Of a stretch of 64,000 nt of DNA, positions 1 through 59,077 are shown piece by piece; the stretch's first letter is position 1; each line of letters starts with the position of its first letter. The position numbers were made by a program, and so were the translations under genes. The stretch covers positions 107,448,001 through 107,512,000 of the forward strand of contig CM059431.1 in assembly GCA_030390025.1 (NCBI GenBank). The letters are read 5' to 3'. The notes beneath the pieces are model-generated. The model saw only the letters and a program-made list of their open reading frames with translations. It searched no databases and was not told the DNA's origin. Origin of the DNA: Squalus acanthias. Lineage: Eukaryota.

Positions 1-482
1 AATTATTTGATAAAAAATAATCAGCTTTTGGGAAAAAGTGGTCATCTTCGGTTTGGCATTCCATTTTCTGCATTGAACTGCAACTAGTGCATAATGTCAC
101 ATTCATTACAGTGGAGTAATTACCTTCCTCCAGCCAATAAGGCAGTAAATCTGAATGACTTCAATTAACATCTGATTGGGTATTTTAATTTACCATGAGC
201 AGTAAGTTTAGCTGACACATAATGGCATTTGCAGCATTCCTGCTTGGGTAATTAGTGAATACTTACTGCAATGTTACTAAGTTAGGGTTTGTCCTGTCTA
301 TCAAGTGACTGCCTTCTCTACTGGACTTGCTCATTTAATCACTTTTGTTACTGGAGCTATTTCTTGTCACATATTCTACTCAACTCTGTCTCAGTTTGTG
401 ATTCTTATGTTTATGCCAATTTTAAATTACTGTGCTTTAATTTATTACTTCACAATAATTTGTATTTTCTTTATTATTCCAG

Positions 483-44841: not shown

Positions 44842-44918
44842 CTCGCTCTGCTCATTTTGCATCCAGGTCCTCTCACAGCAAAGGCCATGCAGTCTCTGAG
44901 ACCAGGCAGTCTCTGACC

Positions 44919-46603
44919 TGTAAGGGTTTGCGTGCGTGTCTCTCAGCCTGTGAGATTCGCGCGGCTCTGTGCAGCCTGTATGTCAGTGCGGGTTTAGGCC
45001 TTGTTGCCTGTTCTGGTCTCCAGCCAGTCTGGGAGCACTAGACACACCTGTGAGTGGTTCGAATCACTCGCCCTTACGGTTCTAGACACTGGACTTAGAT
45101 GCGAGAGCAGTAATGGAAATGAAACTCATGTAGACTCGGTTGAATGGTACGAAATGGAAAATCTTTATTGCATAATATTCAAGATTACGAAATACATGTC
45201 ATAAGCACAGATTAATGACAGTACAATCTTACACGCAGTTATGTAACTAATTCTAGGGAAACGAGGAACGAACGACACACCGTAAATGGGGGCACACATT
45301 ACAATTATCCTTAGTACTTAAACCCTCCCTTATCAATATCTGTCCTAGCTAGATTCGTAGGATTCGAGACTCATGCTCACCACTCGTGATAACTCGGAGA
45401 AATTCCGAATAGCTGATCGGATGTTTTCACCGCAGCACCCACGTGTCGATCAGGGGGGTCTCCTGGCCCCACTTGTTTACTTGCTTCTGCTCCGGCTAGC
45501 AGGCTGGAACGTCTGTTGTTATGAAGATCTGTGTTGGTGGCTTTCACGTACCAGTCAACACTTAAGAGAATAATCTCTCGGTGTCCGTCATGAGGATCTG
45601 CCCTGATGGGTTTCACAGATCAGTCAATATCTCAAAGAAGAATCTTCCGGGATCCGTTCTTTAAAGTTCAAAGAAGTCTTCCTGGCAAGGAGAAATGTCT
45701 ATTCGACCTACAGGCGCGGTCGGGGCTTACTGACCGTGGCGATAAGTATGGTCTTCGTCTCTTCTCATCTCATCTCATCTCTTCTCGGGCCTTTGGTTCC
45801 GATGCCGGTTACCAACACAGGTCTTCGTGACACGACACGAGGTAGATCCGAACGGATCACAAAGTTCAACAGTCTTTTAAAAGAGACACCAGGCAAACAG
45901 GAACAAGACGGCGAGTCAAGAACACAGGAGCAGCCACGAGGATGAACACCAGCAAGATAAGAGGATAAGAGAAAGATGGACGGTTTGGGGTTTGCAATTA
46001 TAGTGCAAAATCTTCCGTTTCCCGCCCAACCTTAATGTCTTTTCTTTTGTTTGGGTTTGGCGCTCAAATGTCTTGCATAGGTGATCTCCGTTTTTAATGG
46101 GTTTCGGGGCTACTCGTAAATGTCTGAGTACCTGTTAATTTTTCTCCCATTGTTCAATCGGTCGGTGTCCTCCCTGGAGGGGTTTTGGGGCCTCCAAGTG
46201 TTTTCTGTAACTACCCGCTAACGGCTCTCTCATCGTAGAGTTGTTGGGATTTTACATATTAATGTCTTTGGATGTGCCCTTGATTACTTGGTACAATAGC
46301 CTTTATTCGTACCCGGGAGACCGATTTCAGTATCTATGTGTATACTGCAAACCCATGATGTCTCGTGTATTATCTTCAATGTGCTGAATCTTAATCGGTC
46401 TTGTACAAATGTTTATTGGAACGCCATCTTGTCTGCCTGTCGAAAAGTCCAGAATGTTCCGCCACGAGGTGCGGCGGCCATTTTACAAGCTGCCTGTGTC
46501 CACTTTGAAACCTGACAGCATTCTGCTGAAATAAAAGCTGTTTGAACGAAACTCTGTGTTTTTCTCCTTATTAATAAAATCGCGATATATTGCGAATTCT
46601 ACA
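44919..46603 (-). repeat. 3' LTR (1685 bp)
   Basis: Direct repeat of 52630-54314 with about 11 substitutions and no indel by manual comparison. Confidence 0.97.
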
Positions 46604-47052: not shown

Positions 47053-49404
47053 TCACACGGTGCTTTCATCGTGCACGCGCACGTAACGTTCTCGCCACTC
47101 TCCCGTGTTTTCATGCTTGGTGAGGCGTTTGTCTCTTTTACAATGTACGACCAATAGGTACACTACAATAAAAACTTGGCATACGACTAAAATGTGGGAG
47201 GCTATCCTGATCCATGAAGGTACTTCAATATTGGTGAACAGATTCCACCACGGTGGAATTACTATATCCAGAATGTCTGTCCCTATCTCGACAGTTTTCT
47301 GCTCTAGTGTGGAGAAATGTTTTTGTGACACCGTGACGGCTTTTAAAAGCTTGGTGAGGTGTTCAGGGAGAGGGGGAATGAGGTATCCGAAATGCGCGAC
47401 GAATCGCTGCAAGTCGGTGAAATTCTCTTTTACTGTGAGATGAACAGTGGATGGTTCAGGGATTGGGACAATTCGCTGTTGTGCTACTTGAACTTCCGCC
47501 CTGGGTTTGAAACAGAAACTGCTGTCACTCACCGGACACCGGCTACGGTTTCCATGCTGGTAGTGTTGCGCTGCAGTGGTAACACAATATGTTCCACCCC
47601 CGATGTATGCTACCTGCGGAGGCACATGATCTTGTGCCATTGCCTCCATGGTGCAATTCATGGACTTGGCGCCAGCCGTTCTGAACCCGCACTGTGGTGT
47701 TAAAAAGGCATTCAAGTGCTGGGGGCACAGTATTATGTGTGCTCCCCTGCCACGACAACCAGAGAGATCTGTACCTGTCATCATTTGCTCCCAGCGGATG
47801 ACGTAGGGTGGAACCGCTGCATAGCGAATGTGGGCTCCCCCCTGAATGACACCAATGTTCTCTACCCGATACACCGGGGCGGGCTTTGCTGTGTCGCCCA
47901 AAACCGGCATACGTAATACTATTCCCATGATAGTATGGTTTGATCGTCCGCAGTCCACGGGGACTGGGTAAGCTTCTGAAGCTAGCCTGAGCTGGCACGG
48001 GCTTAATGCGTTCTGAAAAGGGTGGAGCGCCCGCAGGTGTTTGTTACTTATCCAGGACGGGACCAGACCTTGTTTTAAATCCTCCAAATTACTGCGGCCC
48101 TCGCCCAGTAACCACGCCCCGTAAAGCACGCACACCTCGTTCTGCGCAGCTTGATCGGATGCATTCCGATCTTCCCTAATCAGGGCATTTACCGTCTTTG
48201 CATGTTTCTCTAACTCTGCTATAATTTCCTTTAAATGGAGAGTCATGGCTTGGTCCTCGTGTAAACCCGACCCAACCACTTTATTTTCATCTGTTAGAAT
48301 GTCTTTTAATTGTGTCTTTAAACCATTAATCTGGGTCTGCAGCTCCACACTGTCTAGAGCGTTGACCACAGATGTACCCGTGTTAAAAGCAGTGAACGCG
48401 TCGTTCACTACACCCCTTCTTTGCCTCCCTACTTGATCCAAAACTTCCTGTGGTGCGGTGTACAAACTTGTTTTATCAATTTCCGCGAAATCGAATTCGT
48501 AAAATTGTCTGAACATCTTGGTCAACAGGACCTGATATAACTGTTCCGTCTTTTTGGGGCACCACTCTGGTAACCGCACCTCGGTGAGATTTAAAATCAC
48601 CGAGGCCACCGCGTAATGTACTCCCTGAAATAGTATCTGGTCTGTGGGGACCAGTACCAAACCATTCCCGGGTCCCTTACTAGTTTTAGGGCACCCTTCT
48701 TCCTTAGCTAGAACCACCGGAATCGTGGGCGGGGCTTTGCGTGGGCGCGTAATGAGTTCAGTGGCATTTACCGGGATCGAAGAGTATGGGGCTCCGCACC
48801 CCCTGGTGCTCGCATCCCACCTCATCCCCTGTCCGTTATCCTGCCATTGATTAATGAAAAATATGGAGATGCCTTTGGGGCAAGCGTACTTTGACCCCCA
48901 CATGCATACATAAATTCCCTCATCCGGTTCCCACCATTTGTCCCAACAGACTCTCACTTGTCCGTTTGTCCCCGTAATTGTCCGATGGGTATTATTACCC
49001 AGTCGTTCCCACTCGACCGAAGAGTTCCTCATAGTTTTGCTCAGCTTTCGCAGCCACCACCATCGGCTCAATGGGACATTCCCATTACAAGTCAAACAAA
49101 TCCGTTTGCCGACGGTGACGCTGATCCTGGGTGCGATGATCCTTACTTTGGGGCACATTAAAGAAGTCTCTTGGTAGGCAAACCCCGATGTGCTGGAATA
49201 CTCAGTCGAGTTCGTTCCCAGCCATCCTGGCCACCTTCCCTTGTGGAAATAGGTGGTGGTCTCCTCAGCCTCCCGCCTTCCGGTCCCATCCACCGCGATG
49301 GGGGCCGTGTCCCCGGAGCATCCGAACACCACGACATCCTTGGTGCGGCCTCGATAGGCCAATCTGCATCCGATTGCCGCGAGCAATACTAGAATTCGTT
49401 CCAT
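47053..49404 (-). CDS. env: Envelope glycoprotein, class I fusion type (783 aa from the likely start; the open frame extends to 49563)
   Basis: Hydrophobic N-terminus MERILVLLAAIG, Ig-like segment, furin site RQRR (48415-48426), fusion peptide GVVNDAFTAFNTGTSVVNAL, heptad repeats, Cys-rich region, PPWWNLF, TM helix, tail with YVRV, several N-x-S/T sites. Confidence 0.88.
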   Translation of the reverse strand: MERILVLLAAIGCRLAYRGRTKDVVVFGCSGDTAPIAVDGTGRREAEETTTYFHKGRWPGWLGTNSTEYSSTSGFAYQETSLMCPKVRIIAPRISVTVGKRICLTCNGNVPLSRWWWLRKLSKTMRNSSVEWERLGNNTHRTITGTNGQVRVCWDKWWEPDEGIYVCMWGSKYACPKGISIFFINQWQDNGQGMRWDASTRGCGAPYSSIPVNATELITRPRKAPPTIPVVLAKEEGCPKTSKGPGNGLVLVPTDQILFQGVHYAVASVILNLTEVRLPEWCPKKTEQLYQVLLTKMFRQFYEFDFAEIDKTSLYTAPQEVLDQVGRQRRGVVNDAFTAFNTGTSVVNALDSVELQTQINGLKTQLKDILTDENKVVGSGLHEDQAMTLHLKEIIAELEKHAKTVNALIREDRNASDQAAQNEVCVLYGAWLLGEGRSNLEDLKQGLVPSWISNKHLRALHPFQNALSPCQLRLASEAYPVPVDCGRSNHTIMGIVLRMPVLGDTAKPAPVYRVENIGVIQGGAHIRYAAVPPYVIRWEQMMTGTDLSGCRGRGAHIILCPQHLNAFLTPQCGFRTAGAKSMNCTMEAMAQDHVPPQVAYIGGGTYCVTTAAQHYQHGNRSRCPVSDSSFCFKPRAEVQVAQQRIVPIPEPSTVHLTVKENFTDLQRFVAHFGYLIPPLPEHLTKLLKAVTVSQKHFSTLEQKTVEIGTDILDIVIPPWWNLFTNIEVPSWIRIASHILVVCQVFIVVYLLVVHCKRDKRLTKHENTGEWRERYVRVHDESTV

Positions 49405-49700
49405 CCTTCCTTGGTTCCTGTGATCAGATAGAATGAGGTAGCCAGCCTCGCAAGAGTCTCTGGCTTTTGTGAAGGGTGAGCGGGTCCCCTGACCTCGCCT
49501 CACGTAAACTTCAATGTTCACTAAATAAACTTTAACTAGACCTATCTCTAAAGCTCCCATCATTTTACCGTTTTCTGTTAAAATTAAACTACAAAGTTAA
49601 CCTTATTTAAAACTATAAACTTATAACCTTAAACTATAAACTTAGAAACCTATCCTAAACTTATTACTGTACAGCGCCGCCCGTACTCAGGGCGGCCCCT

Positions 49701-50816
49701 TTAAATTCTGAGAAGGCTGCTGCGAGCTCTTCCCGACGGTGGGAGGGCACTGACCCTTTCCTTTGATCTGCCGCAGCCTGTTGCTGTTGCAATGGGACCG
49801 GATCCTATCTGGGCTGCCTTAACCTTAAGTCTGCGCCTTGGGGCAGTCTGGGGACATGACCACATCTTCCTGGGCTGGGGTGCCCGACCTGACCTACGAG
49901 GAGTTGTCGGGGGCATGAACCCCAGGACCGACGGACCGGGTTCCGAGACTTCCACCGGGACGACCTGTGGTTCCACCACAGTCGCTGGCTCCGCCTCCGC
50001 TGACTCCGCCTCCCTAACCTCGGGACTTGCAGCTTGTGGCTCCGCCCTGCTCGGCCCAGCAGGCGGCCCTTCACTCGCGATCCCTGCCTCCCCCGAGGGC
50101 GGGACGTTCAAAGCGGGCGGCTCGGGCTCGGAGGTTCTCACCGTCACTCCCTGTGGTCTCACAGCGGCTGGCTCCGCCTCCCCTAGCTCCTCCCTCCTGT
50201 GTTCGGGACCTGCAGCCTCTGTGTCCACCCTGTGCGGATCTCCATCTGCAGCCCGTGTCCTCCCTATACCTAAAATGGGGGCGACCCTTTCGTTCCCCAA
50301 ATCCCCCTCGTCTTCATCACTATCCTCATCTGACTCGAGTTCCCGGAATTCTCCCTCATCTGACTCCCAACCCCACAAAAATGCTTCATGACTTTCCAGG
50401 ATGTCTCCTCCCCTGATGCAAGCTGCTTTGCCTGCCTGTGTGCCTTGTGGTCCTACCTGGGGCTGCGAGTCCCCACTCGCAGGTTTTTCCCCTGTGCTTT
50501 TCCCTTGCGCACCTGGCTTGTACAGTTTGCACTGGTTTACATCCTCATACTCCCGGCTTTTGGCTACCCTGTAGGCTGCTTTTATCTCACTAAGCTGCGC
50601 TTCTAGCCTGAGCACGTCTAACTTTCCCATTGATCGGGCGTTCTCCTCCCGCAGGGCCTGCTCTCTAAGCTGCCCTTCCAGCCCATCTATTTTCCCTATT
50701 AAGCGGGCGTTCTCCTCCCGCAAGGCCTGCTCTTTTAACCTGGCCTCCTCACCGCAGACCCCCTCCTGTGCGTGTCTTTTAAAAGGACACAGGTAGGCAG
50801 GCTGCGTGGGCTCTAG
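49701..50816 (-). CDS. ORF2: 371-codon in-frame extension after the gag UGA (coiled coil, acidic/Pro-rich region, basic tail), not Pol
   Basis: The frame is open from 50816 to 49704 and in phase with gag. No ATG near its start. No enzymatic motif. Confidence 0.7.
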   Translation of the reverse strand, partial: LEPTQPAYLCPFKRHAQEGVCGEEARLKEQALREENARLIGKIDGLEGQLREQALREENARSMGKLDVLRLEAQLSEIKAAYRVAKSREYEDVNQCKLYKPGAQGKSTGEKPASGDSQPQVGPQGTQAGKAACIRGGDILESHEAFLWGWESDEGEFRELESDEDSDEDEGDLGNERVAPILGIGRTRAADGDPHRVDTEAAGPEHRREELGEAEPAAVRPQGVTVRTSEPEPPALNVPPSGEAGIASEGPPAGPSRAEPQAASPEVREAESAEAEPATVVEPQVVPVEVSEPGPSVLGFMPPTTPRRSGRAPQPRKMWSCPQTAPRRRLKVKAAQIGSGPIATATGCGRSKERVSALPPSGRARSSLLRI

Positions 50817-50819
50817 TCA
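50750..50819 (-). promoter_or_regulatory. Stop-codon readthrough signal: UGA-CUAG plus 3' stem-loop
   Basis: CAA-TGA-CTA-G. Eight nt after the stop, CAC-GCAG-..-CCT-A-CCTGTG can pair with CACAGG-AGG-..-CTGC-G-GTG. Confidence 0.75.
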
Positions 50820-52625
50820 TTGGGTACTATTAGACGGTCCTGCGGCACCTATGGGGCTGGTAGCAACCGCCACCTTTCCATGTGCACTCAATAATTTGCG
50901 CATGGCTCCCAACACTACTTCGAGGTCGTCGGGAGGGGTGGGTGCACTAGCTTCCCTAGCAGGGACAGGCGTCTGGGCTCGGGCTGCGGGAATTTTATCC
51001 CTGGAATCCTTCCAAGGGTTCCTGCAGTTCTTGCGCCAGTGCCCTGTCTTCCCACACCCGTAACAAGCATTACTTGCCTGCGGGGCGTGATTACCCTCCT
51101 GATGCCACTCCCTTTGATACGGGGCTGCGGGTCGTACCTCATGTACTTTTCCCTTAAGGGGACGTGTTCCCATACCCCTTATGTTGCGATATCCTAACGT
51201 GAGTCGATTCAAGACCGACTCTTCCGTAATGTTGGGGTCATTGGGATCAAACCATGCTTTTGCCTGCTCTCTGACGGCTGGTAAACTGTTGGCTACTATG
51301 CACCTAAGCCAATGATTTAAACCGGTGCCGTCCATATCGTCGCGCTCTAGCGCACCTAGACAGCTGCGCTGATATACTGGCCACAGCCTGTCGGCAAAAA
51401 CCTTCGGGGGTTCTCCCTCCATCTGCACTGTCTGTCCCACTCTAGCAAACGGACCTTCATCGTCCGCCCCCAACACTTCCAGGACCTCATTCTTTAATGC
51501 CTCATAAGTCTTGGTTCCCCTCTTGCTCTCGCCCGAGAGACACTGAAGGATTGAACTGCCTAACGAAAACAACAGCATTTTTGCTGTTTCCCCATCATCG
51601 CAGCCGTTGATGGCTGCGGTTTGCTCAACTTCTCTGAAATGTACGGAAGGGTCGTCTAACTCGGTCAGCTTCCGTACATGATTTATCATAACTCTCAGCT
51701 GGTGTGAGCTGTGAGGCAACACAAGCTGGCCGAGGAGATCCCCTGGTTCCTCCCCACCGTTTCTGTTTGGGCCCCTTTTTATACCCGTTACTGGATACAA
51801 CGGTCCCTTTTCCACTTCTTTCTCAATGGGCTCTTTCGTTTCTTCCACTACTTCCTCCCTTACCCAGGTTTCCGAATAGCTGGGTGGCGCGGAGGGCGCA
51901 GTGGCTAATACTTCCTCTGCTTTACTTGGTGGGGACTTCTGAAACTCCTCTTTTACTAGCGGCTGGTGTGCTGACGGACTGATAAGGCACACCATGCCGT
52001 GCGCTTTGTTCACGGCCTTTTTGAGGTGCTCTATCTCTTTTTGGCAGGCGCTATGATCGGCTCCCTGAAACTTATCCTCAAGGGCCAACTTATATGCCGC
52101 CCTAACCCCCGTTAAGCTCTCTTCCTGAGTTCTTATCTGGGCAGCTTGGCGGGCACATCGTTCCTTTAATCTGCCCTCATTTAACTTTGCCTCAGTGACC
52201 TGGCACTCGAGGTAATCTATCCTTGTTTTATGGTGACTGGAGATTTCCTGGCGTTCTTGGTGCAGCGCACTTAAATTCCTAATGAGCAATTCCCCTCCAG
52301 AGACCTTCTCATCCATTTCTCCCTCTAAATGACTGATTCGAGCTGTTAGCGCTGTAATGACCTGGTTTGAAATCTGGACCTGCCTTTTGTAACACATTAG
52401 CCAGACAGCTTTCTCGAGTGTCTTTTTATGTTCTTTACTATCTGTCCACCTTTCGGCTGCCTCTAGTGGACTTTTATCCGCTAACAATTCACTTATCCAT
52501 TTCTTAGTTAGATTAACCTTTCCGAACACATAATCTGCTATCTTTTCCTGCATAACATTTCGTACAGTCACACCAAAGTCTAACACACTACCCTCTCGCT
52601 GCCAGTGTCCTGCCGCGGTCGCCAT
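50817..52625 (-). CDS. gag: Gag-like polyprotein (602 aa)
   Basis: First ORF after the 5' LTR. Long coiled coil, PSAPPSY, capsid-like Q..GE....F..RL motif, CCHC knuckle CYGCGKTGHWRKNC (51024-51065). Confidence 0.92.
   Translation of the reverse strand: MATAAGHWQREGSVLDFGVTVRNVMQEKIADYVFGKVNLTKKWISELLADKSPLEAAERWTDSKEHKKTLEKAVWLMCYKRQVQISNQVITALTARISHLEGEMDEKVSGGELLIRNLSALHQERQEISSHHKTRIDYLECQVTEAKLNEGRLKERCARQAAQIRTQEESLTGVRAAYKLALEDKFQGADHSACQKEIEHLKKAVNKAHGMVCLISPSAHQPLVKEEFQKSPPSKAEEVLATAPSAPPSYSETWVREEVVEETKEPIEKEVEKGPLYPVTGIKRGPNRNGGEEPGDLLGQLVLPHSSHQLRVMINHVRKLTELDDPSVHFREVEQTAAINGCDDGETAKMLLFSLGSSILQCLSGESKRGTKTYEALKNEVLEVLGADDEGPFARVGQTVQMEGEPPKVFADRLWPVYQRSCLGALERDDMDGTGLNHWLRCIVANSLPAVREQAKAWFDPNDPNITEESVLNRLTLGYRNIRGMGTRPLKGKVHEVRPAAPYQREWHQEGNHAPQASNACYGCGKTGHWRKNCRNPWKDSRDKIPAARAQTPVPAREASAPTPPDDLEVVLGAMRKLLSAHGKVAVATSPIGAAGPSNSTQ
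52607..52624 (-). promoter_or_regulatory. Primer binding site, tRNA-Arg(TCG) type
   Basis: TGGCGACCGCGGCAGGAC lies 5 nt after the 5' LTR and is complementary to the 3' 18 nt of vertebrate tRNA-Arg-TCG as I recall it (...GTCCTGCCGCGGTCG-CCA). Confidence 0.85.
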
Positions 52626-52629
52626 TTTC

Positions 52630-54314
52630 TGTAAGGGTTTGCGTGCGTGTCTCTCAGCCTGTGAGATTCGCGCGGCTCTGTGCAGCCTGTATGTCAGTGC
52701 GGGTTTAGGCCTTGTTGCCTGTTCTGGTCTCCAGCCAGTCTGGGAGCACTAGACACACCTGTGAGTGGTTCGAATCACTCGCCCTTACGGTTCTAGACAC
52801 TGGACTTAGATGCGAGAGCAGTAATGGAAATGAAACTCATGTAGACTCGGTTGAATGGTACGAAATGGAAAATCTTTATTGCATAATATTCAAGATTATG
52901 AAATACATGTCATAAGCACAGATTAATGACAGTACAATCTTACACGCAGTTATGTAACTAATTCTAGGGAAACGAGGAACGAACGACACACCGTAAATGG
53001 GGGCACACATTACAATTATCCTTAGTACTTGAACCCTCCCTTATCAATATCTGTCCTAGCTAGATTCGTAGGATTCGAGACTCATGCTCACCACTCGTGA
53101 TAACTCGGAGAAATTCCGAATAGCTGATCGGATGTTTTCACCGCAGCACCCACGTGTCGATCAGGGGGGTCTCCTGGCCCCACTTGTTTACTTGCTTCTG
53201 CTCCGGCTAGCAGGCTGGAACGTCTGTTGTTATGAAGATCTGTGTTGGTGGCTTTCACGTACCAGTCAACACTTAAGAGAATAATCTCTCGGTGTCCGTC
53301 ATGAGGATCTGCCCTGATGGGTTTCACAGATCAGTCAATATCTCAAAGAAGAATCTTCCGGGATCCGTTCTTTAAAGTTCAAAGAAGTCTTCCTGGCAAG
53401 GAGAAATGTCTATTCGACCTACAGGCGCGGTCGGGGCTTACTGACCGTGGCGATAAGTATGGTCTTCGTCTCTTCTCATCTCATCTCATCTCTTCTCGGG
53501 CCTTTGGTTCCGATGCCGGTTACCAACACAGGTCTTCGTGACACGACACGAGGTAGATCCGAACGGATCACAAAGTTCAACAGTCTTTTAAAAGAGACAC
53601 CAGGCAAACAGGAACAAGACGGCGAGTCAAGAACACAGGAGCAGCCACGAGGATGAACACCAGCAAGATAAGAGGATAAGAGAAAGATGGACGGTTTGGG
53701 GTTTGCAATTATAGTGCAAAATCTTCCGTTTCCCGCCCAACCTTAATGTCTTTTCTTTTGTTTGGGTTTGGCGCTCAAATGTCTTGTATAGGTGATCTCC
53801 GTTTTTAATGGGTTTCGGGGCTACTCGTAAATGTCTGAGTACCTGTTAATTTTTCTCCCATTGTTTAATCAGTCGGTGTCCTCCCTGGAGGGATTTTGGG
53901 GCCTCCAAGTGTTTTCTGTAACTACCCGCTAACGGCTCTCTCATCGTAGAGTCGTTGGGATTTTACATATTAATGTCTTTGGATGGGCCCTTGATAACTT
54001 GGTACAATAGCCTTTATTCGTACCCGGGAGACCGATTTCAGTATCTATGTGTATACTGCAAACCCATGATGTCTCGTGTATTATCTTCAATGTGCTGAAT
54101 CTTAATCGGTCTTGTACAAATGTTTATTGGAACGCCATCTTGTCTGCCTGTCGAAAAGTCCAGAATGTTCCGCCACGAGGTGCGGCAGCCATTTTACAAG
54201 CTGCCTGTGTCCACTTTGAAACCTGACAGCATTCTGCTGAAATAAAAGCTGTTTGAACGAAACTCTGTGTTTTTCTCCTTATTAATAAAATCGCAATATA
54301 TTGCGAATTCTACA
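52630..54314 (-). repeat. 5' LTR (1685 bp)
   Basis: Direct repeat of 44919-46603, followed on the minus strand by the PBS. Confidence 0.97.
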
Positions 54315-56668
54315 GACCTGCAATGCAGCAGCAATGATGACATCATCAGAGGCGACTTTCAGACTGAAACCACTAATTGGTTCATGGGTTCCCACATGCT
54401 GGAACTCAATTGCCCAATTAGGTGAAAATTGCATCAATCTCCCACATCAAATTGCAGTCGGGTGGATAACACGAAATGCGGTGACACGACCCCAACCCGC
54501 CCCAGTATCAAAATCCAGCCCTGTGTTTCAATAGCTTCTCCTATCAGCAGTTTTGTGAAGGAACATGACAGGGAAAAACAGGCTTTTTCAAGAACATGAT
54601 TTAAACAAATCCTTTCCATATTATAGTTTTGTTTCTATTAAAACAAGAGCAATGTAAAAACACATCGCTATTCTTACATAGAGCAGCACTTATCATAAAA
54701 TATCGATAAAGTAGAGAAAGACAAAGGAGACGATGTTAACTTTTATCGTCAAGCGAAAAATCTTAAAATTGCCCTCAAAGTGTGATGGATAGACAGGTTT
54801 GATGCTGAAGGTTTGAGGGGCCTAGCTATCAGACAATAAGTTTGATTTTGTATCCTTATATTAATTTCACTGGAAGGAAAGTTAGGGGCTGCTCACTCAC
54901 GCTTCTGCAAGATGCTCTCCCTGCCAGTGCCACTCCCTGTTGGCAGCATTGAAACATGGAACTTCTCCCCTTACTGCAATCATCGATTAGGCCAAAATGT
55001 TCACGCTGCTGGGCAGCTAACATTTAACATTCACCCTTATTTAATAATTAATCTTTAATGATAGAGGCGATGATGTCGGGCAAGCTGTTTTAACAGGATA
55101 AGTCAGCTAAAGTTCAGCCTGAATGTTATTTACTCTTATGTTCTTGTTATGCCAAGTGAAGTCATTAACATTAGGAACTTGAGAAACATCAACCATCAAT
55201 AACATTCAGCTTGTCACAACAAAACATTAAAGTTGATACTTGACAGAGACATTATGTTCAATCTGGATGATATCTATTTGTAATATTCCATTAAAAAATA
55301 TGTAATAATCAACAAGGGTCGAGGGGCTAGTTCTATTAACAACACTTATTACTGTAGAATTACCAGATATTTATTCATAAAGTAACCTCTTATACAAAAA
55401 TAAGAATATGTTAGAGCAGCGATAATTCCACGATCCTGCACTCCCAGCGGGAAGGCATCTTCCCAGCTGATGCGGATCAGAGATGTGGGAGTTACAGTAT
55501 TGGGTAGCCCCATCTCTGACCCATGATCCTTGTAAGCATAGCTTCTCACTGGCAGCGCTGGATCACAGAATTACCCTTAGTATTTCATTTTAACTCACCA
55601 TACCATGGAGTCGTAAAAGAAAGAACTTGTATTTATTATAGCGTCTCATCACACCCTCCGAGTGTCCCAAACAATAACAACAACAATTTGCATTTATATA
55701 GCGCCTAGTTAAGTGAAAGTAAAAGGCGCTTCACAGAAGCGTTATCAAACAAAATTTGACACTGAGACACATAAGGAGATATTAGGACAGATGTCAGTTT
55801 TAAGGATCATCTTAAAGGAGGAGAGAGAGGTAGAGAGGCGGTGAGGTTTAGGGAGGGAATTCCAGAGTTTAGGGCCTCGGCAGCTGAAGGCACGGCCGCC
55901 AATGGTGGAATGATGAAAATCAGGACTGCGCAAGAGGCCAGATCTCGGAGGAGCACAGAGATCTCGGAGGGTTGTAGGGTTGTAGAAGGTCACAGAGATA
56001 GGGAGAGGCGAGGCCATGGAGGGATTTGAAAACAAGGATAAGAATTTTAAAATCGAGCCGTTGCCAGACCGGGAGCCAATGTAAGTATGTTTTACAGAAG
56101 GTGAGTTTGTGCCCATGATTTTGAATAGTGTGATTCTGATCTCAAGCATATAGCCAACCATACATGTTGGAAACTGCCAAGGGAAGGCCTGGAAATTCCC
56201 TGCAGAAAAGTAATGAAATTGGAGTACGAGCCATCTTGAATCAGTCCAATTCACTTCCTAGTGGCTAGTTACAGAGCATCATTGATGGAACCCTTGGAAA
56301 CAAGCCTCCAACTCACCCTCGCAGCCACAGATGATGCATGGGGCTGGGAGATTCCAAAAAGGAAGGAGAACAATGGTTTTACTTTGAATATCAAAAATAT
56401 CTCCACCTTTGCATTAAAGAAAATATGAGTATTAGTACATTGGCTTTGAAGATGTGAAGCAAAATGACAATTATACCCCAGTTGGGCTATGATCAAAACA
56501 GGCCCACTCTTAAGTTTTCCAAAATTCATGTGGACAGACTGATTGTCTTATTAGCAATTAGTATTGCAATATTAGCAATTAGCATTATCATATTCATAAA
56601 AAGTTCCTTGTTCTCTTACTCATCTGAAATGGTCAGGAATTTCACACAAGTTGTTCAAGTGCTCATTA

Positions 56669-59077
56669 CAGGAAACTCTATGGTATCCGGCACCGATGGG
56701 ACCGGGGTGGTGCCGGTTGAATAAAAATTCCGGCTAACGGAGAGGGTTATCTACTGAGGCAATTTTTAACAAACAAAAATTAAAAATCAAGAAATGTGCA
56801 GTATACAGTAATTGGGTACTCACCTACAGAATGTTGTGTTAAATGGATGGTGGAAGATGCTTGATTAAGTACAGTACTGCCAGTTGAGGGTAATCCATAA
56901 CTCTTTAATTACTTAACAGTAAAACAAAAATTATAAATGACTGTATACAGTACTGTAGTTGACTGTACACCTATTCCAAGTCAACTGGTTCATCAGGAAT
57001 ATCCATGCCAGCTGGGTCATCAGGAACATGCACTTCTACAGATTCCACAGATTCTTCAGGCACTTCCGCTGCTTCGACTCTTTTGGAAGCTTTCTTAAAC
57101 ATGTTGCAGATGTCGGCTTGCTTAGTGGACTCTTGCCTTTTCTGTAGAAACGTGGAATGCAGAATATGGAGTTGCATAACTTCTTTGGCAGAGTAGCAAG
57201 GCTGCCTTTCAGCAAATTGGAGGATTGAAGAAAATCCTTCTGCAGCTTTAGCCCAAGAAATCTTGTTCTCTTCAGAAATCTCATCCTCTTCACTTTCCAT
57301 CTCACTTTCCTTTTCTTTCTTTGGATTCAAAACACTCTCAATTATTTCATCATCACTTAGCATATGCACAACAGCAACTTCTCTATCTGCATCAACGCAC
57401 TGCTCGATATCACTTTCACTGAGGTGACATAGAGGGTTTGCTGGGCCTACATTTTTCACCATGCCAGCCATTTCCATTATTGTACTCTTCTTGGGATGAA
57501 CATTGAACCCATGAAATTCCTCCTCTGAAGAAGAACCTTCAGCAAACATTACAGAAGGCCACAATTTGTGCCAGGCTTGCCTCAGAGTGTGACCTTTCAC
57601 CAAGTTCCAGGAACATGCAACATTATAGATGGCATCTTTAATACTGTATTCCTTCTGAAATGCGTGAATATTGTCATCTTGGTTTATCAGTTTACGTAGG
57701 AAGTCTTTCTTGTAATGACACTTCAGATTTTGGATAACACCCTGGTCCATGGGTTGTATGAGAGAAGTTACATTTGGTGGCAAATAAATGGTGAAAATAT
57801 TTCCCGAAACCAACTCAGATTCATGCGGATGGGCTCTACAATTATCAAGCAATAAAATGCATTTGCTATCTTCAGGTTTCCCTATTTTATGGAAATGTTC
57901 CCTCACAGATGGAACAAAAATATGATGGAACCAATAGGAGAAGATTTCCTTATCCATCCAAGAATTTTTTTGATCTTTGTACTCAACAGGTAAGTGTCTC
58001 ACATTTTTAAATGCACGGGGATTTTTATACTTCTCAATAACAAGAAGTTTAACCCGGTGTGATCCAACGGCGTTCGCATATGTTAGCACGGTTACATGAT
58101 CTTTATTTTTCTTGTAACCTGAAGCATTAGCCTCACTAGCCCCAGCAAGTGTTGATTCTGGCAAAAACCTCCAAAACAAGCCAGTTTCATCGGCATTATA
58201 TATCTGTGCTGGCGACAAATCATATTGCTGCACAATCCGATTGAAATAATCGCAGTATTCTTCTGCGGCGTCGTGATCAGCTGATTTCTTCTCCCCGGAA
58301 ATATCGAGTCGTCGTATCCCGTGCCGTAACTTGAAGCACGTTAGCCATCCCTCGGAGAAAGCACACTTGTCAGTGAGCTCCATCCTTTTGTAGAAATCCT
58401 TCGCTTTTTCGATTAGCATGGGTCCGGAAAGTGGAACACCCTCTGAACGCTTAAGAGAAAACCACTCATAAAGCACGGTATCCAGCTCTTCAAGCTTAGG
58501 CTTACGAAGCGTACGCCGTTTCTCTACACTTTTAGATGTCTCTGAGCTTGAATAAAACTTGAGCAGCTTATCCTTCTGTGATTTGATGTCGTAGATTGTT
58601 GACGAACCGATTTTGAATTCATTCATAATGTTGATACGCTTCTCTCCCCTTACTAGTCGTTGGCATATCTCGATTTTCTGTTTTAAAGTTAACACCACTC
58701 TCTTCCTTTTGCTTGGACCAGCTTTTGGGAATTCCATAATGCAAGAGGGGGGAGAGACACACAGAAAAATGGTGGCTCAGAAGAGACTACCAGCAGCACG
58801 GGAGACACACAGTAAAATGGCGGATCAGAAGAGACTACCGGCAGTGAGGGAGAATCAGACTCCTGTTATTGCAGTGGTCGGACTTCCCACAGCGCCGGGA
58901 AGCCGAGTAGTGGCACTTTGGAGAACTACCCCCACTGACTAACGCGGCGTTCGCGGGAGACTCAGACTCGGACTCGGCAACATTGCCGGTTATTGGGAAG
59001 GAGTTTTCGGAGTATGAATTTTGCCGGTTAATAGAGAATTCCGAATATTTAGGTGCCGTTTAAACGAGAGTTTGCTG
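56669..59077 (-). mobile_element. Full-length Tigger/pogo DNA transposon (2409 bp)
   Basis: TA on both flanks. TIRs CAGGAAACTCTATGGTATCCGGCACC / CAGCAAACTCTCGTTTAAACGGCACC (19 of 26 identical). Single transposase ORF. Confidence 0.92.
56971..58737 (-). CDS. Tigger-type transposase, DD32D (588 aa, open)
   Basis: [23 protein letters not shown]-type HTH ([15 protein letters not shown]), [18 protein letters not shown] with 32 residues between the last two Asp. Confidence 0.93.

Follow-up and report, generated by a model that had tools for sequence, protein, structure and literature searches.

In-frame stop codons between gag and pol are already known in retroviruses, and their readthrough is usually explained by the Gag:Pol ratio. 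In Moloney murine leukaemia virus (MoMLV), the model of the type III context, the stop is UAG-G, followed by an 8-nt purine spacer and an H-type pseudoknot. The available part of a 2026 review (PMC13517186) assigns UGACUA to the type II context, and the viruses named there for it, which include the alphaviruses Sindbis virus (SINV), o'nyong-nyong virus (ONNV) and chikungunya virus (CHIKV), are all non-retroviral; mammalian UGA-CUAG genes are described alongside. The retroviral UGA sites given in the same part are UGAAGA, UGACGA and UGAAGU only, and snakehead retrovirus (SnRV) appears with UAGGGC. Here we describe a type II stop at the end of gag in a stretch of 64,000 nucleotides of the Squalus acanthias genome (assembly GCA_030390025.1, contig CM059431.1, positions 107,448,001 to 107,512,000), hereafter the window. 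The gene belongs to a young, high-copy endogenous retrovirus (ERV) without enzyme genes, and comparison with its relatives identifies the stop, TGA-CTAG, as the ancestral gag-pol junction of this retrovirus family.

The locus resembles the alphavirus and mammalian type II cases in its UGA-CUA(G) and in a natural UGA-CUG variant. As in the alphaviruses, according to the available text, a polymerase-type frame follows the stop and an extended stem may start 12–18 nt in; unlike there, the context sits in a retroviral gag-pol junction. The first-pass annotation of the window had drawn an analogy with murine leukaemia virus (MuLV), which holds loosely. Shared features are an in-frame stop after the zinc knuckle and before the DTG motif of protease, with a long 3′ region past gag, but MuLV uses UAG-G plus a pseudoknot instead of UGA-C, and protease (PR), reverse transcriptase (RT), RNase H and integrase (IN) are deleted in the element described here.

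The layout around the gag stop was largely as first annotated. On the minus strand, gag ends CAA-TGA-CTA-GAG (CAA at 50822–50820, TGA at 50819–50817), and the frame from the ATG at 52625 to 49701 spans 975 codons, interrupted by a single stop at codon 603 before the one at its end. This is equivalent to a potential fusion of 974 aa (602 + 1 + 371), if the stop is decoded. The 31 open codons said to link gag to a listed open reading frame (ORF) of 340 aa are indeed in frame with it, as that ORF opens at codon 32 with a TTG (50723), a bacterial-style start. The first ATG of the whole frame behind gag, termed ORF2 here, is codon 63 (50630). At least 4.2 kb lie downstream of the gag stop and approximately 3.1 kb downstream of the ORF2 stop. 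The features of this region are, in order of translation:

50820 to 52625, minus strand: gag, 602 aa, with an N-terminal coiled coil, a putative capsid-like region and a CCHC knuckle.
50813 to 50819, minus strand: TGA-CTAG gag stop in type II leaky context, the gag-pol junction; the same heptamer stands before protease in pol-bearing siblings.
50784 to 50816, minus strand: ORF2 codons 1–11, Pol N-terminus ahead of protease (LEPTQPAYLCP, against LEPAQPVYLCP in relatives); 5′ arm of all predicted stems.
50541 to 50783, minus strand: ORF2 codons 12–92, non-Pol insert, an 81-codon Gag-type coiled coil, divergent and in its native frame, in place of approximately 1,205 Pol codons.
49701 to 50540, minus strand: ORF2 codons 93–371 and stop, post-integrase Pol tail, predicted disordered (pLDDT about 40–57), with an acidic patch.
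49860 to 49901, minus strand: basic motif R-R-S-x-R-x-x-Q-x-R-K-x-W in the tail, conserved in six of six groups, pol-bearing and pol-deleted.

The ancestry of the junction was assessed on 30 loci chosen on 451 bp of gag alone (99–100% identical). All 30 carry TGA-CTAG; 21 run in frame into Pol-type sequence (LEPAQPVYLCP...LLDTG, with the DTG protease motif in the printed translations), 8 are window-type, and one is a recombinant with the long terminal repeat (LTR). The proposal that an ancestral gag-pol recoding signal is retained is thereby supported as regards the stop and its CUAG context, and pol-bearing siblings with 99% identical gag have TGA-CTAG before protease, where the annotation had suggested looking for it. 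In these siblings, the DTG motif follows 36 codons after the stop, so that the in-frame ORF without a start of its own that a type II site requires is present, as is one of the two type II hexanucleotides (UGACUA or UGACGG), within UGACUAG. The same gag-stop layout recurs in relatives whose Gag is 65–72% identical and in a family found via a Gag 43% identical to that of the window. Across 90 loci, a junction was obtained for 88, namely 87 with TGA-CT(A/G) and one with TAA-CTA; in the remaining two, the junction is TGA-CTAG in one and lost from the other. Position +6 is only ever A or G across five lineages, and CTA and CTG are the sole leucine codons used after the stop, out of six possible.

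Exact-pattern counts in the 3.7-Gb genome gave 725 window-type and 562 Pol-type junctions, the latter being pattern matches for which a whole pol was not confirmed in each case. TGACTAG is present in all of the first 100 Pol-type matches listed, while the positions on either side vary, and in 97 of the first 100 window-type matches listed, where the three changes are singletons and flanking changes recur. Context and frame, whose loss in other copies would have counted against the first-pass proposal, are thus mostly kept (TGACTAG in 97 of these 100; TGA-CT(A/G) in 87 of 88 junctions). Among 30 loci of a second pol-deleted type, the sister type, 28 have TGA-CTR; of the other two, one reads a sense codon there and the other is fused to the end of an LTR. 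With no slippery site or separate start required, decoding of UGA-CUAG would be the simplest route to Pol in the pol-bearing elements.

Single exceptional copies were also seen. Three (L164, L165 and L135) have a sense codon at the junction, and in a fourth (L136) the LTR end is joined directly to the start of ORF2, without gag. L164 carries a sister-type ORF2 after a Gag unlike that of the window, which suggests that the junction cassette has moved between Gag families.

The first-pass description of ORF2 as a non-Pol protein has to be abandoned. Of its 371 codons, 290 (78%) are Pol-derived, comprising the first 11 and the last 279 of Pol, and as judged from these alignments, ORF2 is a pol gene whose enzyme-coding middle has been swapped out in frame. 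DNA identity with the pol-bearing relatives stops at 50785 and returns at 50540. From there, the tail and the downstream DNA are 91–98% identical to six of six pol-bearing siblings and have the identical stop. NQCKL, with which integrase ends, lies at codon 1218 counted from the stop in three of the six close siblings and at codon 94 in the window; the other three siblings have 1219 or, in two cases, out-of-step lengths. The insert resembles the Gag coiled coil (E 3e-6 to the P0002 Gag; E 2e-17 for the longer insert of the sister type) and holds an in-frame 69-nt duplication. A single-sequence structure model of ORF2 gave one helix at 20–97 and disorder elsewhere (pLDDT 82–96 in blocks within 21–90, mean 55.5). 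No donor of the insert was found among the 30 matches read out of at least 150 (89–100% identity) or among two more examined, all of them sister-type copies, and no ORF2 homologue appeared among 8000 scored candidates of 204–650 aa. A frame-shifted homology of the insert start to pol was considered and rejected, being significant in only two of six pairs (7 and 19 of 2000 shuffles). The insert start shares 10 nt with the LTR end (about 50778–50769 and 52653–52644); one copy (L120) recombined exactly there, possibly a clue to the way in which the insert was acquired.

Three differently built deletions, with at least seven joins, all keep the Pol frame to the Pol stop. The sister type (at least 150 matches) has a longer Gag-like insert and a different 3′ join, and the B type combines half a protease with the RNase H-integrase linker and the tail. 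Each deletion ends where the post-integrase tail begins or just inside it, and the basic motif is spared in all three, although the tails of the A and B families are only 23–30% identical. The B copies are more decayed: 11 of 18 still have the tail motif in frame, compared with 47 of the 59 copies that bear an insert. More generally, Pol of this family ends in a predicted disordered post-integrase tail of 270–290 aa (50540–49704 in the window; L128–L133 and L061–L063), nearly free of conserved sequence except for the acidic patch and the basic motif. By analogy, this motif could be guessed to act as a chromatin tether or nuclear signal; arginine-anchor tethers are present in foamy virus Gag and probably in MLV p12, according to the part of PMC9040877 that was available.

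For the analysis of selection, one natural copy was used as reference, and changes found in two or more copies were considered shared. Omega of shared changes was 0.46 and 0.37 in gag, indicating purifying selection, 0.82–1.04 in the tail, and 0.2–1.1 in the insert (small counts, none significant). Pairwise values between lineages were 0.17–0.22 for gag and 0.59–0.90 for the tail. Between the window and the sister type, omega was low at 0.06–0.13 in codons 1–11 and 0.13–0.33 in codons 77–92, stretches of 11 and 16 codons. No shared stop was observed in the frame where 8.4 were expected (p 2e-4). Shared indels kept the frame in 13 of 18 cases within ORF2, but in 4 of 15 downstream of its stop (p 0.015), and private indels within ORF2 did so in 21 of 49 (p 0.05 against shared). 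Three of the five shared frameshifts in ORF2 fall in its last 22 codons. The reading frame is kept, on this evidence, while the amino acids drift almost neutrally, the basic motif excepted, and the open frame is probably under selection within the deleted lineages themselves.

With regards to RNA structure, two candidate stems were compared, numbered with the U of UGA as +1:

50753 to 50806, minus strand: hairpin predicted in the first-pass annotation, specific to this sub-lineage save for its upper 7 bp.
50725 to 50802, minus strand: alternative long interrupted stem, +18..+40 with +69..+95, predicted by RNAalifold from 26 insert-bearing copies and common to both insert-bearing lineages.

An extended hairpin had been placed 8 nt after the stop; the hairpin is predicted, but its first pair lies at 50806, 10 nt after the stop. 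The 59 nt from 50808 to 50750 fold to an interrupted 17-bp hairpin of −26.1 kcal/mol (z −3.19; 2 of 200 shuffles as good), and the wider fold of 50820–50740 reached a z of −1.63 (15 of 200 shuffles as good). Against 51 other 60-nt segments within 800 nt, the hairpin had the lowest energy and the second-lowest z, and is thus locally unusual, though hand-picked. It cannot, however, belong to the ancestral signal as had been supposed, because its Pol-derived arm pairs with a 3′ arm in the insert. Covariation was not seen either, as 21 distinct sequences from 26 copies contained no compensatory change, with two lower-stem pairs broken in 14 of the 21 and the upper 7 bp invariant, and the pol-bearing partner forms no stable hairpin at this position (z +0.3 and +1.1).

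Across 31 pol-bearing and B copies, RNAalifold predicted helices at +19..21/+93..95 and +23..29/+77..83. The latter, of 7 bp, is paired in 99% of 210 cells, and one of its pairs goes from U-A through U-G to C-G inside the pol-deleted B lineage (a level reached by 1 of 500 shuffles, in a control that ignores relatedness). The long stem of the insert lineages covers the same stretch as this ancestral stem and shows only one-sided changes, so it is a candidate. We regard the long-range stem as a lead that rests on approximately two events; that a long interrupted stem based near +18 aids readthrough is a tentative suggestion of these models. A pseudoknot can be drawn in the pol-bearing and B lineages with 100% pairing, its first stem being invariant and its second partner deleted in the window. 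A two-helix fold drawn by hand for the insert lineages was discarded, since 99.6% pairing with zero variation is uninformative.

Why should an element without enzymes keep a leaky stop? Sequence comparison makes it likely that readthrough at this stop occurs in the pol-deleted element. The reading we favour, with less than even confidence, is that the leaky stop and the open frame are kept for RNA stability in cis. A small fraction of ribosomes would pass the gag stop and run to the old Pol stop, and translation beyond gag would shield the element's own RNA from nonsense-mediated decay (NMD). The pol-deleted element would borrow its enzymes from a pol-bearing sibling, with the 974-aa Gag-ORF2 fusion as a by-product. 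Because the enzymes would be borrowed, effects on the element's own RNA are the likeliest to stay under selection, and a frame that stays open while its amino acids change freely agrees with an RNA-protecting role. As far as the available parts of PMC4917968 and PMC5360307 describe it, termination at gag leaves a long 3′ untranslated region, and MoMLV-type readthrough blocks NMD in reporters.

Several points weigh against this reading. Longer downstream stretches need more readthrough, as stated in the part of PMC5360307 that was available, and approximately 3.1 kb remain past the ORF2 stop, while for UGACUAG alone readthrough of at least about 1.3% is given in the accessible text of PMC13517186. 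Private changes are also somewhat stop-poor, a sign that the neutral expectation could be an overestimate, and the insert alone had 0 shared stops against about 1 expected, which are too few events. The tail is common to the pol-bearing siblings (91–98%, with some indels in both), so selection on Pol, spread by recombination, could explain most of what the stops and indels show. One copy set was chosen by its junction, and the low variation near the junction in a comparison based on it is partly an effect of this choice and was given no weight here. Unplaced contigs may also duplicate loci, and part of the shared events could then be haplotype duplicates. The compensatory stem change is a single event, and the ancestral stem is no stabler than shuffles (z near 0). 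Finally, the conserved tail motif and the captured coiled coil would suit a protein role better.

Such a role is the content of a close and only slightly less probable alternative, in which readthrough yields a useful minor Gag-ORF2 protein that co-assembles with Gag, oligomerises by its second coiled coil and brings the Pol tail and basic motif into the particle, so that less helper Pol is needed. That all three deletions end at or near the tail start and spare the basic motif speaks for it, as do the nature of the insert (a coiled coil of Gag type, read in its native frame and containing the in-frame duplication of 69 nt) and the low omega between window and sister type in codons 1–11 and 77–92. 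On the other hand, the tail amino acids change near-neutrally, the insert is without significant constraint, and the filler of the B lineage, half a protease with the RNase H-integrase linker, is quite different. The lack of an ORF2 homologue among the 8000 candidates of 204–650 aa and the presence of the same tail on the helper's Pol also argue against a useful fusion.

Still less probable, in our view, is that the leaky stop is a vestige, with junction and tail refreshed by recombination with pol-bearing siblings in a family too young to decay, and with in-frame joins that are due to luck or template switching; readthrough may then occur unselected. The near-identity of the LTRs (differing at just 11 of 1685 sites), of gag (99%) and of the tail (up to 98%) to those of pol-bearing siblings in the latter two cases, the cassette transfer seen in L164 and the neutral protein drift are all compatible with a vestige. 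At least seven independent in-frame joins are less so, the chance being 1 in 27 if only the net frame of the three lineages is counted, and shared frameshifts would not be expected to concentrate at the ORF end. Moreover, the compensatory stem change arose inside a pol-deleted lineage, and no lineage with an out-of-frame deletion was seen among the 90 gag-picked loci. Independent translation of ORF2, via spliced RNA or re-initiation at an internal ATG and without readthrough, we consider quite improbable. An ATG is present at codon 63 in 31 of 32 window-type and at codon 40 in 26 of 28 sister-type copies, but its position thus differs between the lineages, it has a U at −3 in the window, and it is missing in one copy. 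In every lineage, the codons ahead of it remain open and continue the gag frame, and the sole acceptor-like pyrimidine tract seen lies after ORF2, before env.

Taking RNA shielding together with a Gag fusion carrying a chromatin-tether tail as possible Pol-independent jobs, we propose, at close to even confidence, that pol-deleted parasites have been selected three times to keep the leaky stop, to rebuild the stem from foreign sequence and to hold the frame open, and that UGA-CUA is an unnoticed gag-pol strategy here and in teleost lokiretroviruses. Neither gag-pol readthrough at a UGA-CUA in a retrovirus nor the retention of a readthrough frame by ERVs that have lost pol turned up in our literature search, with subscription journals and Repbase notes outside its scope. 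Enzyme-less elements with a leaky stop separate the Gag:Pol ratio from other jobs of readthrough, and the proposed RNA-protecting role becomes testable on natural sequences. The alphavirus-type context would be added to the retroviruses, and the same junction is found unremarked in published lokiretrovirus sequences.

The lokiretroviruses (PMC7947760) share with this family a coiled-coil Gag N-terminus and an Env with a furin-type site. By eye, in the part of that paper's supplement that was available, the four consensus elements listed with a separately annotated Gag all end it in TGA-CTA-R; three continue in frame into the pol annotation, and the fourth goes out of frame by one base after approximately 50 codons. 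Several other consensus elements have gag and pol fused. The word readthrough is absent from the text of PMC7947760 and from PMC9040795. Membership of the lokiretroviruses was dropped on the RT motif, which is CPFGY or TPFGY there and LPQGF here; this was judged by motif, as the RT tree contains no loki row. The RT of the pol-bearing sibling has foamy virus and MLV RT as its best solved relatives and is placed within a clade (100/100) of LPQG-type RTs that includes coelacanth and Xenopus proteins, in a tree of 33 rows without labelled references or an SnRV row, from which 10 of 41 matches were omitted for short overlap. Its motifs resemble SnRV by eye in a published alignment, and SnRV also has its gag stop in frame, but with UAG-GGC in the review cited above as far as available. 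The family can be called SnRV-like by resemblance only. The class III element XtERV-S of Xenopus, in the available part of PMC8278194, likewise has an in-frame gag TGA, but uses a Ser primer site and carries a dUTPase after IN, where the present family has the disordered tail of 270–290 aa. Zebrafish BHIKHARI (bioRxiv 10.1101/2024.03.25.586437) is pol-less likewise, but its Bik-1 is, in the part available, a single gag ORF with no in-frame pol remnant.

The remaining features of the provirus are as follows:

52630 to 54314, minus strand: 5′ LTR, 1685 bp, TG...CA, differing from the 3′ LTR at 11 of 1685 sites.
52607 to 52624, minus strand: primer-binding site for tRNA-Arg(TCG), the complement of the 3′ end of genomic tRNA-Arg(TCG) genes.
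47053 to 49596, minus strand: env frame, 847 codons between stops, its first ATG at 49563, with an RQRR cleavage motif.
44919 to 46603, minus strand: 3′ LTR, 1685 bp, preceded by a short purine tract.

The provirus is flanked by a 4-bp target duplication, GACC, at 54315–54318 and 44915–44918. Its interior contains gag, ORF2 and env only, with protease, RT and integrase absent. Together with the LTRs, primer-binding site and purine tract, and with a near-identical pol-bearing partner in the genome, this makes it a non-autonomous, pol-deleted ERV. The junction is covered by contigs from four sequencing runs (four organism labels) with 0–3 differences, which shows its presence, not its expression or splicing; no RNA run was among those listed as containing it. 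Gag is 53% identical to P0001 and 43% to P0002, its nearest named counterpart being a skate Gag (53%), and its zf-CCHC match at residues 520–535 (E 0.0035) is short of Pfam's cut-off. Env is 73–91% identical to Env of the pol-bearing relatives, and a splice acceptor for it is predicted near 49575. It had no Pfam match to paramyxovirus or pneumovirus F at E 0.1, although the RQRR site is present; an Atlas lead (0.84) was nameless.

The ATG of gag shares nucleotides with the tRNA-Arg(TCG) primer site (52625–52607, minus strand), and the frame is open for 41 codons farther upstream, into the LTR. The N-terminus of Env (within 49596–47053, minus strand), upstream of the RQRR site, has a Cys/Trp pattern resembling an Ig domain. 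Window-type junctions recur at a spacing of approximately 7.7 kb (G000:C1:143657938-143673423 and similar), which suggests tandem proviruses that share LTRs. The ends of tRNA-Arg(TCG) genes lie in long arrays with a 1,623-bp period (G000:C26:40.5-41.9 Mb), with 433 exact matches in the genome. Outside the provirus, an open frame of 601 codons at 58776–56971 (minus strand) resembles, by eye, a transposase of the pogo/Tigger type.

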